From the IMG/VR virus record IMGVR_UViG_3300017782_000001: a DNA stretch of 64,000 bases; one strand, given 5' to 3'. Shown piece by piece: positions 1,683 to 33,036 of the stretch. Positions within the stretch are counted from its first letter, which is position 1; each line of letters begins with the position of its first letter. The translations under genes and the position numbers were made by a program. Origin of the DNA: a virus. Below the pieces are notes generated by a model, which saw only the letters and a list, made by a program, of their open reading frames with translations, made no database searches and was not told where the DNA came from.

Positions 1683-1716
1683 AATATATGTCTCCTTAAG
1701 ACTGTGTTTTGGAAAG

Positions 1717-1800
1717 CTTTGCAGTGACTCTTAATCTTAAAAAACTTTGCAGTGACTCTTAATCCTAACCTTTCGGCTCCAGTAAATTTTCTCCAGTAAA
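1717..1800. repeat. Two pairs of short direct repeats in the DUF932 leader
   Basis: ctttgcagtgactcttaatc at 1717-1736 and 1745-1764; ctccagtaaa at 1777-1786 and 1791-1800. Confidence 0.85.
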
Positions 1801-1826
1801 CTTTTCCTTTTCCATTTTATAGATCT

Positions 1827-1892: not shown

Positions 1893-2432
1893 TTACAATT
1901 TTTTTCTTAGTGATTCAAATTTTCTAATCTGTCTTTCATAAAAATTACCCATTTGTAACTTTAACTCAAAGAACCAATCATCTTTAGTGCCTTCAAAGTA
2001 ATTAATACCTTTATCGGTTTTTACCAATTGAAGTTGACCTAAGCCAAGGTTTTGAATAGAAAGATGATGCCAATCAATTGACTCTATAGGTCGATATTCA
2101 ATATTGACTATTTGAGCAGTTTCACCATCAACAGGATTAACTACATAATCAATGAATAGGTATGCTATTTCAGTATTTCTATTTTTTGATAATCTATCTA
2201 CTGAAATAAGATTAGGCATACTAAATTCACGACCAATGTCGCGGGTTTTAACGTCAACCAATACACCTTTGAACGTTACATCTTCAATAGTACGCACGCT
2301 TTTTGGTGCAATACCACCTTGTTCAATAAGTTGATTAACCACATCGTTTTCTATGATATCCGCAATAGCTCGTTGACCTGAGTTATGAGGAACATCGTAC
2401 ATTTTGTACTCAATGTTTGCTTGTATTTCCAT
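1893..2432 (-). CDS. PD-(D/E)xK endonuclease, HincII/EcoRV-like type II restriction fold
   Basis: EDVTF..VLVDVKTRD...PNLIS..RL and later QLQ parallel the HincII motifs DVKTRN...PNIIS..KL...QIQ (recalled, not aligned). Confidence 0.55.
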   Translation of the reverse strand: MEIQANIEYKMYDVPHNSGQRAIADIIENDVVNQLIEQGGIAPKSVRTIEDVTFKGVLVDVKTRDIGREFSMPNLISVDRLSKNRNTEIAYLFIDYVVNPVDGETAQIVNIEYRPIESIDWHHLSIQNLGLGQLQLVKTDKGINYFEGTKDDWFFELKLQMGNFYERQIRKFESLRKKL

Positions 2433-2459
2433 TAAATTTCCTTTTCCATAATATAAAGT

Positions 2460-2641
2460 GGGGCGGTTAGCCTGACATCTATCCTCCTCGACCGGTTGGT
2501 CCGCCCCTTGAGAAGGATAGGGTACATTCTATTTAAGATTACGGTTCCCTGAGTCGTACCAGACTTGTAAACCTCTGAGACTGTCGATCTTATTAGTGAT
2601 CTCCCTTATTCAGCCTCTCAATCTTTACCTTCGCTATGTCA
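2460..2641 (-). ncRNA. Structured non-coding RNA with multibranch core and pseudoknot, family unidentified
   Basis: About eight compatible helices, G-U wobbles favouring the minus strand, GC-rich relative to flanks, no ORF, downstream of a consensus promoter. Confidence 0.65.
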
Positions 2642-2674
2642 TAATATTTACTTCCTTTTCCATTTTATAGATCT

Positions 2675-2703
2675 ATTATACACTATTTCTTTTGAATTGT
2701 AAA
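2675..2703 (-). promoter_or_regulatory. Early promoter
   Basis: TTTACA-N17-TATAAT with the shared leader. Confidence 0.8.
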
Positions 2704-3000: not shown

Positions 3001-3108
3001 TTTCCTTTCTTTTCCATTTTATAGTACTATTATACACCATTTCTTCTGAAAAGTAAAGGAAAAAATGCAAAAAAGTGCATTTTTATATTCAACAAAAACA
3101 ATGGCTTA
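3001..3108 (-). promoter_or_regulatory. Early promoter module, near-duplicate of 32941-33036
   Basis: TTTACT(3052-3057)-N17-TATAAT(3029-3034); about 90 bp of flanking sequence shared with the copy at 32.9 kb. Confidence 0.8.
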
Positions 3109-3708
3109 GCAAAAAAGTTCAAAAATAAATTTTTTTTGCCAGCGCCAAGTTAATCGTGGCTGAATAAATTTGTCAAAGGGGATGTTATGTTTTTTACAAA
3201 CCTTTAGTTGGATTGCTTTATCTTCTGGAGTCATTAATGAGGTGTCTGTATATGAGTCACCTACCTGTGAAACTCTTAAACCATTTCTTTCACCTAATCC
3301 CCAAACTTCATCAAAGGAAATCTTTTTTGGATCAGCGTGTGCTACGATAGTGCCATGATCGTTTAGCATTCGTGACATCATTGCAACTTGAGGTTGAGGA
3401 TCAGTATACTGAAGTGGACCGAAGTTTAGAATCCAGTCAGCTTTTCTTCTTAAAAGAAATTCAGCGTTGTGAAGGTCATCGACGATGTCTACGTTTGGAT
3501 GAGATACAAGATCAATACCAATTAAATTTGGAACGTGTTCTTTGAATACATTTCCACCACAGCCTAAGTCAACTACAAGATCAGGCTTTGTATTAGCTAT
3601 TTCTTTAGCTAAGTTTAATCCAGATAATTGTCTGTAGAGTGCTAGGTTTCTTTTTTCAAGTTCATCAGAAGATGAGTACCTTGCAATTATTTGTTCTTTT
3701 TCCACCAC
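3106..3708 (-). CDS. Class I SAM-dependent methyltransferase
   Basis: VVDLGCGGN motif I, LIGID motif II; paralogue of its neighbours with C-terminal R..W.W.K. Confidence 0.8.
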   Translation of the reverse strand: MVEKEQIIARYSSSDELEKRNLALYRQLSGLNLAKEIANTKPDLVVDLGCGGNVFKEHVPNLIGIDLVSHPNVDIVDDLHNAEFLLRRKADWILNFGPLQYTDPQPQVAMMSRMLNDHGTIVAHADPKKISFDEVWGLGERNGLRVSQVGDSYTDTSLMTPEDKAIQLKVCKKHNIPFDKFIQPRLTWRWQKKFIFELFC

Positions 3709-4667
3709 CAGTTCAACCTTGGTCGTACTCCATCAGAAAGTTCTGTGGAGTATAATGGGCTTTGTAATCTTCTAAATTTTTCGTTTAGACATTTAATATG
3801 AATGTCATGAAATTGTTCACTTGGTTCTTGTGGATCAATCATGTCACCTTTGTCATGATTCCTATTAATCCAACGATTCCACTCATCAACGGTAGTAGTT
3901 TTTTCGTCGTATCTTCCGATGTATGAGTTAAGTATAGGCCATGTTAGCTGCTTTAGATCTGTCCATTCTGTGATAATAGGCTGTTTCATTTCAGGTACAG
4001 AAAGATTGTAAGGACATAATTCAAGATTAGCTGCGTCTCCAAATTCTTTAATTTTTGCGCGGGTCCAAGGGTAATGAATCATACCTCTTCTATTAAACTG
4101 TTTTTCATCTGATATACGTCCTGGTCTGGCATGGCAACAAATCAATCCATCAGGTCTTAAAACTCTAGCACATTCAAAAATAAGCTCTAATATTTCATCT
4201 TCAGTACCAAAGTTAAAAGGACCAACACATCTAATACCATCGATTGTTTCACTTTTTAGAGATTGTAAATATTCTAAAACGTCCATTACAATGTCTGCAT
4301 TGTTATACCAAGGAAGCAAGTCAATACCTATCATATTATTGATATGCTCTTTCATAATGTTATTTCCACAACCTAAGTCTAATACAACATTACATTTCTT
4401 TTCATTAAAAACACTTACGCAAGCAAATCCTGATCCAGTCTTAGCGTGACTTGTTACTCTAATAACCTCAGACCAATCATTGCTAAAGTGATCCTTTAGT
4501 TTTTCAAGTCTCCATTCTCTTGTAGAGTTAGCTACATATTCAGGATCGTATCTATCACCATCACCAATTTGATCAGCTCTTTTAGAGTATCTTATTTTTT
4601 GCTTTTGTGTTAGCTCAACCGGTTTTGAAATCGGTCCGGCTCGTGTTACTTCTTCTGCCATATCCAA
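3687..4667 (-). CDS. Class I SAM-dependent methyltransferase
   Basis: VLDLGCGNN, MIGID, ARVLRPDG. Confidence 0.8.
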   Translation of the reverse strand: MDMAEEVTRAGPISKPVELTQKQKIRYSKRADQIGDGDRYDPEYVANSTREWRLEKLKDHFSNDWSEVIRVTSHAKTGSGFACVSVFNEKKCNVVLDLGCGNNIMKEHINNMIGIDLLPWYNNADIVMDVLEYLQSLKSETIDGIRCVGPFNFGTEDEILELIFECARVLRPDGLICCHARPGRISDEKQFNRRGMIHYPWTRAKIKEFGDAANLELCPYNLSVPEMKQPIITEWTDLKQLTWPILNSYIGRYDEKTTTVDEWNRWINRNHDKGDMIDPQEPSEQFHDIHIKCLNEKFRRLQSPLYSTELSDGVRPRLNWWWKKNK

Positions 4668-5323
4668 AAAATCCTTTCACGAGTTTTACCATTTTTGACA
4701 GGATCTCTTAAGTAAAATCTTTCATTTTCCTCTACTTTAGAAGCATAGGTATAATCAATTACTGGATCTAAATAGTATTCTAGGTTATGAGCTTTACTAA
4801 ATGCATGCGTTGTTTCAAACGACCAAGGGTATAGTTCTGCTCCTGCTTTGTATCCGTTAAATGGTTTACACAAACAAGCAATTTTTCCATTAGACTTTAC
4901 AAGGTGCTTCATTTGCTCAATCATAGTATGTATAGTTTCAGTGTTGTGGTGGTGTAAAACACCAATAGCCAATATCCAATCAAAAGTATTTTCTTTGAAT
5001 ATATCATAAGCACCTTGAAGGTCAGTGTTTATGTCAGGGCTTCCCCATGTTCCTGGCTCAACGCCTATGACATTTTTTAATCTATTTTTGAAAGGGTTGT
5101 TTCCGCATCCAACATCTAAAACAAAAACACCGGATCCATCCTTCTTAATTTCTTTAAGTAGGAATTCACCAGTGAATTTTCTTGTGTCGTAAGTAAATTT
5201 TCCTACGTACTCATCGTATCCTAACTCTTTACGGGTATATGTAGCCTTCCAATCAGAGTCTCTTTCTTCTATAGATTTGTTCCACCAATCAGAAAGTTCA
5301 AACTGGCCAGTAATATCAATCAT
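4646..5323 (-). CDS. Class I SAM-dependent methyltransferase
   Basis: VLDVGCGNN, FDWILAIGVLHH, LVKSNG. Confidence 0.85.
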   Translation of the reverse strand: MIDITGQFELSDWWNKSIEERDSDWKATYTRKELGYDEYVGKFTYDTRKFTGEFLLKEIKKDGSGVFVLDVGCGNNPFKNRLKNVIGVEPGTWGSPDINTDLQGAYDIFKENTFDWILAIGVLHHHNTETIHTMIEQMKHLVKSNGKIACLCKPFNGYKAGAELYPWSFETTHAFSKAHNLEYYLDPVIDYTYASKVEENERFYLRDPVKNGKTRERIFWIWQKK

Positions 5324-8842: not shown

Positions 8843-9487
8843 TTAAGTAATTTTATTCACGGTAATGTAAACATCATCATGATTCTTAGTAAATTCTTCC
8901 GCAGCCTCAGGATCAAACCCAGGTATCTCAAGGAATGAAGTTTTAGGTTCGTATAAACTCCACTTAAACTTCATTTTCTCTGCGAACTGTTTTATATATT
9001 CATCCTCTTCTATCAATCTTTTTTTCATTGTAGTAGAGTTTTCATACATTTCATTATATGACGGATAGACATCATCATCAAAAGACATGATTGCATTCCA
9101 CCATAGAAAGCTTTGTAGTGGCTTACGTTTAAGTAATACCATATAGTCGTTTTTGAAATTATCGTAAATGAATTGCAGGTTATCGTACCTTGCAAACGCG
9201 TGAGATTTTATTACTCGAATACCTTCACCAGCAAATTCTTTAGATATTTCTTCAAGTATGTTATCTTTGCCAATTTTGGCGAGGTCAGTCCAGGACTCGC
9301 CGCAGCCTTGCCCTGGACCCCAATAACTACCTCTATGCCCGTTGAACGTATAACCTTTTTCATTGTGTTTATGAAAATGTAAACGTTCTTCAGATTCGTC
9401 TGATCTATTCACAGGAAGCGAGTGCCTCATGTGAATATCAATGCCACTCCACTTAGATCCGGGTATTCCACAAAACCAGATATCCAT
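8843..9487 (-). CDS. Sulfotransferase-like P-loop protein (G.PGS.W family)
   Basis: WFCGIPGSKWS resembles the PAPS-binding G.PRSGT loop; VIKSH and LLKR.P..S resemble sulfotransferase motifs. Confidence 0.5.
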   Translation of the reverse strand: MDIWFCGIPGSKWSGIDIHMRHSLPVNRSDESEERLHFHKHNEKGYTFNGHRGSYWGPGQGCGESWTDLAKIGKDNILEEISKEFAGEGIRVIKSHAFARYDNLQFIYDNFKNDYMVLLKRKPLQSFLWWNAIMSFDDDVYPSYNEMYENSTTMKKRLIEEDEYIKQFAEKMKFKWSLYEPKTSFLEIPGFDPEAAEEFTKNHDDVYITVNKIT

Positions 9488-15514: not shown

Positions 15515-15532
15515 ATAGCTCTCCTTAAATAA

Positions 15533-15850
15533 GTTGCCGGATTCTGTTTCGAGGCTCCGGCGGGCCCAGAGATTATGCCGCTAGGCGCATCTCAGGAGCA
15601 AAGTTATCGTTTGCATTTACGTTTTTGATTCTCCACTGCCTTCTTGTATCTGTCGATCCTATTTCGCCCCCATCATAATAAGTCTTGCATGCCGCGGTGA
15701 ATAATTGTTTATGCAAATATATTCAACGCAAAATTTTCTAAATTGCCAAAGTAGTACTTCGTCCATTATTACCTCAAGACTTATTATGGTGGAGGCGGCG
15801 GGTACTGCCCCCGCGTCCAGCCTACATCCATCCAGTTTCACTGAATCATT
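15533..15850 (-). ncRNA. ssrA: Two-piece circularly permuted tmRNA, alphaproteobacterial type; tag ANDNFAPEMRLAA
   Basis: Acceptor piece ends GCGGGGGCAGTACCCGC-CGCCTCC-ACCA at 15787. Coding piece starts GGGGGCGAAATAGGATCGAC at 15671 and forms the acceptor stem with a G3-U pair. Tag ORF at 15614-15573. Confidence 0.93.
15659..15766 (-). CDS. Putative 35-aa peptide in the tmRNA intervening segment
   Basis: GAGGT RBS, then ATG, MDEVLLWQFRKFCVEYICINNYSPRHARLIMMGAK*. Confidence 0.35.
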   Translation of the reverse strand: MDEVLLWQFRKFCVEYICINNYSPRHARLIMMGAK

Positions 15851-15852
15851 TT

Positions 15853-15912
15853 TATTTATACTAGTATTATACCATACTTTTTTTTGAATGTAAACCGCTA
15901 ATTTTATAAATA
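15853..15912. promoter_or_regulatory. Divergent promoter hub: early and late promoters for tmRNA (-), late promoter for the plus-strand operon
   Basis: Minus: TTTACA(15889-15894)-N17-TATAAT(15866-15871) and TATAAATA(15853-15860). Plus: TATAAATA at 15905-15912. Confidence 0.8.
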
Positions 15913-32940: not shown

Positions 32941-33036
32941 CTTTTCCTTTTCCATTTTATAGATCTATTATACACCATTTCTTCTCAAAAGTAAAGGAAA
33001 AAGTGCATTTTTATATTCAACAAAAACAAAGGCTTA
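32941..33036 (-). promoter_or_regulatory. Early promoter module, near-duplicate of 3001-3108
   Basis: TTTACT(32990-32995)-N17-TATAAT(32967-32972) with the shared leader. Confidence 0.8.

Follow-up and report, generated by a model that had tools for sequence, protein, structure and literature searches.

What is encoded between a strong early promoter and the gene of a nuclease-like protein in an uncultured phage genome, and whether the two belong together, is the question raised by the locus considered here. It lies near one end of a stretch of 64,000 nucleotides from IMG/VR record IMGVR_UViG_3300017782_000001 (the whole stretch is hereafter called the window), in whose first 6 kb the genes are all on the minus strand. 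Among named phages, Methylophilales phage Melnitz (T4-like, Kyanoviridae) is the nearest relative, the match being limited to an upstream 97-aa gene; the nearest virus record, G001, has only the promoter in common with the window and no synteny. An examination of the letters alone (the sequence-only reading) had proposed an unassigned, pseudoknotted RNA at this place, and the sequence and coordinates of the element are as it described them. After the promoter come the leader AUAAAAUGGAAAAGGAAG, the frame AUG ACA UAG (2642-2634), about 175 nt without a credible ORF, and the Shine-Dalgarno (SD) sequence and ATG (2432) of a 179-aa ORF (Table 1). From its sequence and relatives, the element is predicted to be an independent early gene whose product is a structured RNA of ~210 nt, and the RNA at 2458-2639 is almost certainly a genuine, uncatalogued structured-RNA gene.

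This RNA belongs to a family of at least 46 distinct sequences, found on uncultured marine phage contigs. Motifs of the fold, searched as exact patterns in IMG/VR, JGI metagenomes and GTDB genomes, yielded ~40 distinct sequences in several clades, and a covariance model, R1, was built from 35 of them; it detects a single copy in the window (2458-2639, 131.5 bits) and a single copy on each of the other contigs. The first scans all demanded the P5 hairpin, and the apparent invariance of P5 was an artefact of this ascertainment. The converse scan, anchored on the minigene leader alone, gave 27 further loci that score 84-132 bits with the model and differ in their P5 and K1 sequences (types B and C), while about 25 other distinct matches of that scan were rejected as coding false positives. 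A third scan, in which the type-B fold served as the anchor, added 31 more distinct upstream regions. Since the homologues were gathered by sequence patterns, the conservation seen in an anchor motif is in part a product of the search. Two matches in bacterial MAGs are phage contigs, with a T4 gp23 gene in the same bin.

Among cultured phages no homologue was found by blastn of three family types against a copy of INPHARED in which records near the genome of the window are possibly masked, and the Enterococcus phage matches of that search were rejected, being confined to the AT-rich promoter stretch. The whole genome of T4 gives no match to the family model, and its tRNA region, including rnaC/rnaD, reaches at most 4.9 bits with R1 when filters are off. 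A 17-bit model match in Melnitz was also set aside, as it lies inside a hydroxylase CDS, and Melnitz is without the RNA. In the window itself a second occurrence of ATGACTTAGC (20750) is inside a 307-aa ORF and was dismissed as a chance match. Neither the paper on Melnitz (PMC9004378) nor, as far as its named models go, a bulk catalogue of viral structured RNAs (PMC10690425) describes this RNA.

The fold of the minus strand is unexceptional when a single sequence is considered (z = -1.7 for the MFE fold; 13/200 shuffles fold as well), and the plus strand has about the same thermodynamic score, so that support for the fold is comparative. In a model-based alignment of the 46 distinct homologues (A6), 92.6% of cells are in standard pairs as against 71.5% in shuffles, and 0/500 shuffles reach the observed value, counts that are not probabilities because the rows are related and were fitted to the model. 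A stronger argument is provided by controls with slid partners, in which pairing falls to 30-49%, together with the number of distinct pair types. Compensatory changes, the test proposed with the sequence-only reading, occur at 33/44 pairs; in a comparison helix by helix the sequence turns over wholesale with pairing kept, and RNAalifold recovers P3-P6 independently.

Table 1. Features of the RNA locus in the window, with positions counted from the first letter of the stretch.
Feature	Position	Strand	Remarks
Sigma-70-type early promoter	2675..2703	-	TTTACA, 17-nt spacer, TATAAT; consensus 11/12
5' leader with Shine-Dalgarno-like AAGGAAG	2651..2668	-	
Minigene AUG ACA UAG	2634..2642	-	Met-Thr-stop
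9-nt spacer CGAAGGUAA	2625..2633	-	Stop codon to P2; in-frame UAA inside
P2 helix	2536..2624	-	2619-2624 with 2536-2541; three-way junction enclosing P3 and P4/P5 arms
P3 hairpin	2577..2617	-	2611-2617 with 2577-2583; variable apical hairpin 2586-2601
P4, internal loop, P5 hairpin	2543..2573	-	P4 2569-2573 with 2543-2547; ACA/CAGG internal loop; P5 hairpin 2552-2565
Pseudoknot K1	2521..2560	-	P5 loop GGUAC (2556-2560) with GUACC (2521-2525)
P6, 11-bp stem	2479..2520	-	2510-2520 with 2479-2489; 20-nt loop
Pseudoknot K2	2460..2507	-	P6 loop GGGGCGG (2501-2507) with CCGCCCC (2460-2466); linker 2467-2478
Downstream 179-aa ORF	1893..2432	-	Own SD; not part of RNA element

The predicted architecture is a three-way junction formed by P2, P3 and P4-P5, plus the long hairpin P6, the whole tied by the pseudoknots K1 and K2. 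Most of the nested helices of the sequence-only reading are reproduced by the MFE fold, and the alignment bears out AAGAUUG/UAAUCUU as P2 (compensatory changes at 5/6 pairs in a ragged alignment, the helix sequence being wholly changed between clades), GAGGCUG/CAGUCUC as P3 (7/7 pairs, 100% paired), GGUUU/GAACC as P4 (2/5 pairs), AGUC/GACU as P5 (3/4 pairs, with the variants AGAG/CUCU, AGUU/AACU and GGUA/UACC) and the 11-bp stem as P6 (9/10 pairs). The loop-to-tail pseudoknot that had been drawn between GGGGCGG and CCGCCCC was recognised correctly as well, K2 having compensatory changes at 4/7 pairs and at least seven different complementary sequence pairs across clades. Two of the proposed helices had to be given up. 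Of the closing helix UGACAU/AUGUCA only CAU/AUG recurs, without compensatory change, and its 5' half reads UUG or GGA elsewhere; in GGUA/UACC the UACC side pairs instead with the loop of P5, forming K1, in which 3/5 pairs show compensatory changes, 99% are paired and the covarying versions are GGUAC/GUACC, GGUAG/CUACC, GGUAU/AUACC, GGAAC/GUUCC and GGUUG/CAACC. The apical hairpin GAUC/GAUC, also among the original helices, is a variable insert in place of which other clades have other hairpins or none.

That G-U pairs make sense on the minus strand only, as had been remarked, holds in A6, where one P4 pair is U-G in 46/46 sequences; the transcribed (RNA) strand is thus the minus strand. Conservation among unpaired nucleotides is found in the ACA/CAGG internal loop and in an A-rich joiner before K1. 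At the 5' edge the sequence around UAGC is strongly conserved, with a relaxation of UAGC in one clade.

The gene order throughout the family is a sigma-70-type promoter, a short SD leader, a minigene of 2-4 codons, a spacer of 5-10 nt and a compact fold of 150-200 nt. In searches anchored on the fold, which left the 5' region unconstrained, every full-length member has an SD and an in-frame ORF of 2-4 codons, and in all clades the minigene AUG is preceded, at a distance of at most 16 nt, by an SD-like element, the leader sequences being different. Six different peptides are encoded across the family: MT (AUG ACN UAG, with ACA, ACC or ACG), ML (AUG UUG UAG), MRR (AUG CGG/AGG CGA UAA), MDYG (AUG GAU UAC GGA UAG), MKEP (AUG AAA GAA CCA UAG) and MTWT (AUG ACU UGG ACA/ACU UAA/UAG). 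The spacer from the stop codon to P2 measures 9 nt in 36/36 type-A sequences, one clade having 10 nt and another 5 nt, so that the stop-to-P2 spacing is near fixed while the length from start to stop varies; no covarying pairing partner was found for this 5' spacer. Conservation concerns the presence of the minigene frame, its shortness and the point where it ends, and not the peptide itself. The RNA is distinguished by this SD-minigene, which is obligatory and keeps a fixed distance to the fold.

The absence of a match to tRNA, tmRNA, 6S, SRP, RNase P or a known riboswitch, as first stated on inspection, was upheld by database comparison. A scan of the window at gathering thresholds with the 4227 models of Rfam 15, which include riboswitches, ribozymes, 6S, SRP, RNase P, IMES, GOLLD, ROOL and HEARO, returned only a tmRNA at 15532-15898, and at E up to 10 the region 2380-2760 gave chance matches only (12-18 bits). 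Four other family members at E up to 0.1, and three other family types, also had no Rfam match. ARAGORN reported no gene in the window, and the RNA has no cloverleaf or tRNA-like domain. A group I intron was rejected, and so was splicing to the ORF downstream, as inspection revealed no omega-G or frame-compatible junction and no Rfam intron model matched. The RNA shares with riboswitches a conserved structured, aptamer-like domain with covariation and conserved junction nucleotides; functionally coherent downstream genes are missing, the genes varying by clade without a common family. As to an expression platform, K2 is followed by at least four U in 15/36 members, and no alternative pairing partner was detected. 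The layout of a bar-type minigene, with SD, AUG, at most about five codons and a stop, is present in all full-length members. A ToxI-like antitoxin or a nuclease guide finds no counterpart in the RNA, which is single-copy, not repeated, and without linkage to a partner gene.

The family members are autonomous in their settings. Each of them possesses a sigma-70-type promoter of its own, nearly every clade has a different gene downstream of the RNA, and a search of 5 kb to either side revealed no protein gene that co-occurs with it. In many members K2 is succeeded by a terminator hairpin or a run of U; the locus L009 has a separate hairpin there. Genes for tRNAs are located 50-110 nt downstream of the RNA in L020 and L010, ~1 kb from it in the L081 clade and 1-3 kb from it in L022, L024 and L019; most RNA loci, and the window itself, have no tRNA genes nearby. 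The tRNA genes concerned (Arg-UCU, Pro-UGG, Cys, Trp, His and Gly; L010 7768-8002, L020 907-980, L081 1256-1331, and those of L022, L024 and L019) are spread over six clades, and in L020 a tRNA-Trp gene is located 3' of an RNA whose minigene holds a Trp codon.

Copies of promoter and leader also occur near 32958, 3020 and 1818 on the minus strand of the window; the early cassette (TTTAC., 17 nt, TATAAT, then AUAAAAUGGAAAAGGAA) thus exists in at least four near-identical copies, at about 32958, 3020, 2666 and 1818. A copy of the leader without promoter is present at 2452 (minus strand), 3' of the RNA, and the window leader AUUAUGGAAAAGGAA accordingly recurs right after the RNA, ahead of the 179-aa ORF. 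The sequence ATATTATG, which had been regarded as a special flank of the element, turned out to be part of this repeated early leader, and for the same reason a target-site duplication was rejected. An oligo-dT RNA library contains a 302-nt contig that agrees exactly with window 2471-2681 and diverges on both flanks, which indicates the same RNA allele in another genomic background, and suggests that the RNA and its promoter behave as a cassette shuffled via the repeated promoter and leader sequences. The repeated early cassettes are consistent with such shuffling through recombination in the repeats. In a wider marine set of 18 studies, 16 public runs recorded as RNA libraries hold parts of the stretch; in four RNA-library runs these parts are covered by assembled contigs at the low word depth of 2-5, for which DNA carry-over is possible.

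For the working of the RNA we favour a ribosome-coupled mechanism in which a ribosome on the minigene and the fold would act as one unit, and we put the probability of this reading at roughly 0.4. A host ribosome would initiate on the minigene and, once its A site holds the stop codon, the mRNA entry site would abut P2; a spacing such as the one found here brings P2 to where mRNA enters the 30S subunit, which is the geometry of frameshift and read-through pseudoknots. The complex of ribosome and fold would be the working unit. It might hold or slow the ribosome, and so serve as a ribosome trap or as a source of peptidyl-tRNA drop-off during host take-over, ORFs as short as the minigene being those prone to drop-off in the literature on lambda bar; in the other option, ribosome occupancy would set the state and the stability of the fold. 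The tRNA genes close to the RNA in six clades point to a translation-related neighbourhood. In its most specific form, which we put forward only tentatively, the proposal is that of an RNA class widespread in marine T4-like myophages, whose start-to-stop minigene would load a host ribosome and park it against the double pseudoknot, as a device for capture, stalling or sensing early in infection; we know of no described counterpart of such a device. Against ribosome coupling it may be held that an SD-AUG-stop at the 5' end could be a mere nuclease shield, which explains arbitrary peptides equally well, and that a ribosome trap does not obviously need so elaborate a conserved core.

The shield argument leads to the view that this is a stable RNA acting in trans as a protein sponge, decoy or anti-defence factor, the fold of which would bind a host or phage protein while the minigene loads a protecting ribosome at the 5' end. 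Its own promoter, its usually terminator-like 3' end and its unrelated neighbours agree with this, as does a peptide that is free to vary, and the conserved ACA/CAGG loop and A-rich joiner before K1 would suit recognition by a protein; yet a 5' shield needs just an SD or a hairpin, whereas AUG, stop and spacing are all kept, and no protein gene accompanies the RNA in the 5 kb on each side; we rate this view as rather doubtful. A further alternative is a riboswitch-like or attenuator leader, where a ligand or ribosome occupancy would decide via K2 between termination and read-through into the downstream early genes or tRNAs. The core, with its pseudoknots and conserved junctions, resembles an aptamer, K2 is GC-rich and followed by the U runs counted above, a gene start or tRNA usually comes 5-110 nt after the RNA, and leader ORFs joined to sensing leaders are known, mgtL-mgtA being an example. 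Such a leader is nevertheless unlikely, given that the downstream genes are functionally incoherent, that neither K2 nor the 5' spacer has a conserved alternative pairing, that several members possess a separate terminator or no nearby gene, and that the SD is upstream of the fold and not within it.

A self-cleaving or otherwise catalytic RNA, cutting for instance near the stop codon, would be in keeping with the size and double-pseudoknot topology, both comparable with those of the glmS and HDV classes, and with the strongly conserved UAGC region. No known ribozyme family matches, the conservation of UAGC is relaxed in one clade, and contigs from RNA libraries cross the 5' edge unbroken at 2633-2642, which is weak evidence; catalysis of this kind appears quite improbable. 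Finally, the sequence-only reading had suggested that the RNA might be the partner (antitoxin, scaffold or guide) of the neighbouring nuclease. The one point in favour is adjacency in the window to a protein that has no Pfam or PHROG match and is weakly similar to the restriction enzyme HincII (E = 0.07). A tblastn search found no homologue of the 179-aa protein in 335 kb of other RNA-bearing loci, a result that refutes the partnership; moreover, the protein has its own copy of leader and SD, and in L010 a near-identical RNA precedes another small ORF, with tRNA genes beyond it. We consider a role as nuclease partner hardly credible.

Returning to the ribosome-coupled reading, comparison with known systems helps to delimit what is particular to this RNA. 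The lambda bar minigenes (barI and barII) consist of an SD, a two-codon ORF and a stop on a phage transcript and fall in the length range that gives peptidyl-tRNA drop-off; the combination of SD, very short ORF and stop on a phage transcript is thus common to both. The bar sites are, however, without a conserved downstream fold, whereas the RNA described here has a dedicated promoter and a minigene fused to a covarying double-pseudoknot domain. Frameshift and read-through pseudoknots, such as that at the MuLV gag-pol UAG, resemble it in that a stable pseudoknotted structure is placed 5-10 nt after the A-site codon. Unlike these recoding signals, it has no longer ORF beyond the stop, an in-frame UAA follows two codons on in most members, and the region beyond the stop evolves as RNA, with indels and compensatory pairs. 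In trpL and mgtL-mgtA a short ORF likewise stands beside a structured leader, and the position of the ribosome could decide the structure of the RNA; the minigene is nevertheless too short for sensing through a nascent peptide or codon starvation, the genes that come after the RNA are unrelated, and no sign of a conserved alternative pairing was seen.

Like the present RNA, tmRNA combines an mRNA-like segment with pseudoknots, and it acts on ribosomes. A tmRNA gene of the two-piece (alpha-type, permuted) kind is present in this phage as well (window 15532-15898, minus strand; 97 bits against Rfam RF01849), and phage-encoded tmRNA is known from Melnitz and pelagimyophages (PMC9004378). The RNA studied here differs from tmRNA in lacking a tRNA-like domain, in escaping detection by ARAGORN and Rfam and in what is predicted to be normal SD-dependent initiation. 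Phage-encoded structured RNAs of obscure function, often near tRNA genes, include T4 rnaC/rnaD and the phage-borne GOLLD and ROOL; the family model, in contrast, matches nowhere in T4, and in comparison with GOLLD and ROOL the RNA is much smaller, carries a minigene and matches no Rfam entry.

Few viruses on Earth are as abundant as the marine T4-like phages that infect SAR11, OM43 and related hosts, and the early genes of these phages are, to our knowledge, almost entirely unknown. An RNA in which strong covariation and two pseudoknots go together with an obligatory minigene would form a new RNA class. If the ribosome-coupled mechanism is true, it may also be the first natural RNA made for action on the ribosome from the side of the mRNA channel; it accompanies other phage equipment directed at translation, tmRNA and tRNAs. 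Should the minigene be merely a shield, the fold would still be promising as a new aptamer, ribozyme or protein decoy. K1 and K2 offer ready tests by compensatory mutation.

Several other elements were observed at these loci. On the same contig as the RNA, L022 contains a glutamine riboswitch aptamer at 9018-9066 on the plus strand (RF01739, 50.5 bits). In one clade (L054 6690-6770, also L041 and L046) a second conserved element of ~85 nt, closed by a hairpin with a stem that is roughly AGAUACA...UGUAUCU, occupies the interval between the RNA and the next promoter and matches neither Rfam nor tRNA. In the window, ~135 nt of non-coding sequence at 1683-1818 (minus strand), between a promoter at 1855-1827 and a DUF932 gene, contain two direct repeats, TTTACTGGAG and AAGATTAAGAGTCACTGCAAAG, each present twice; this stretch could be another regulatory or RNA element. 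Upstream of the RNA gene, at 3106-5323 (minus strand), three overlapping tandem ORFs of 200, 326 and 225 aa, the first without Pfam match, all have a (V/L)D(L/V)GCG.N motif, as is typical for SAM-dependent methyltransferases, and look like paralogues.
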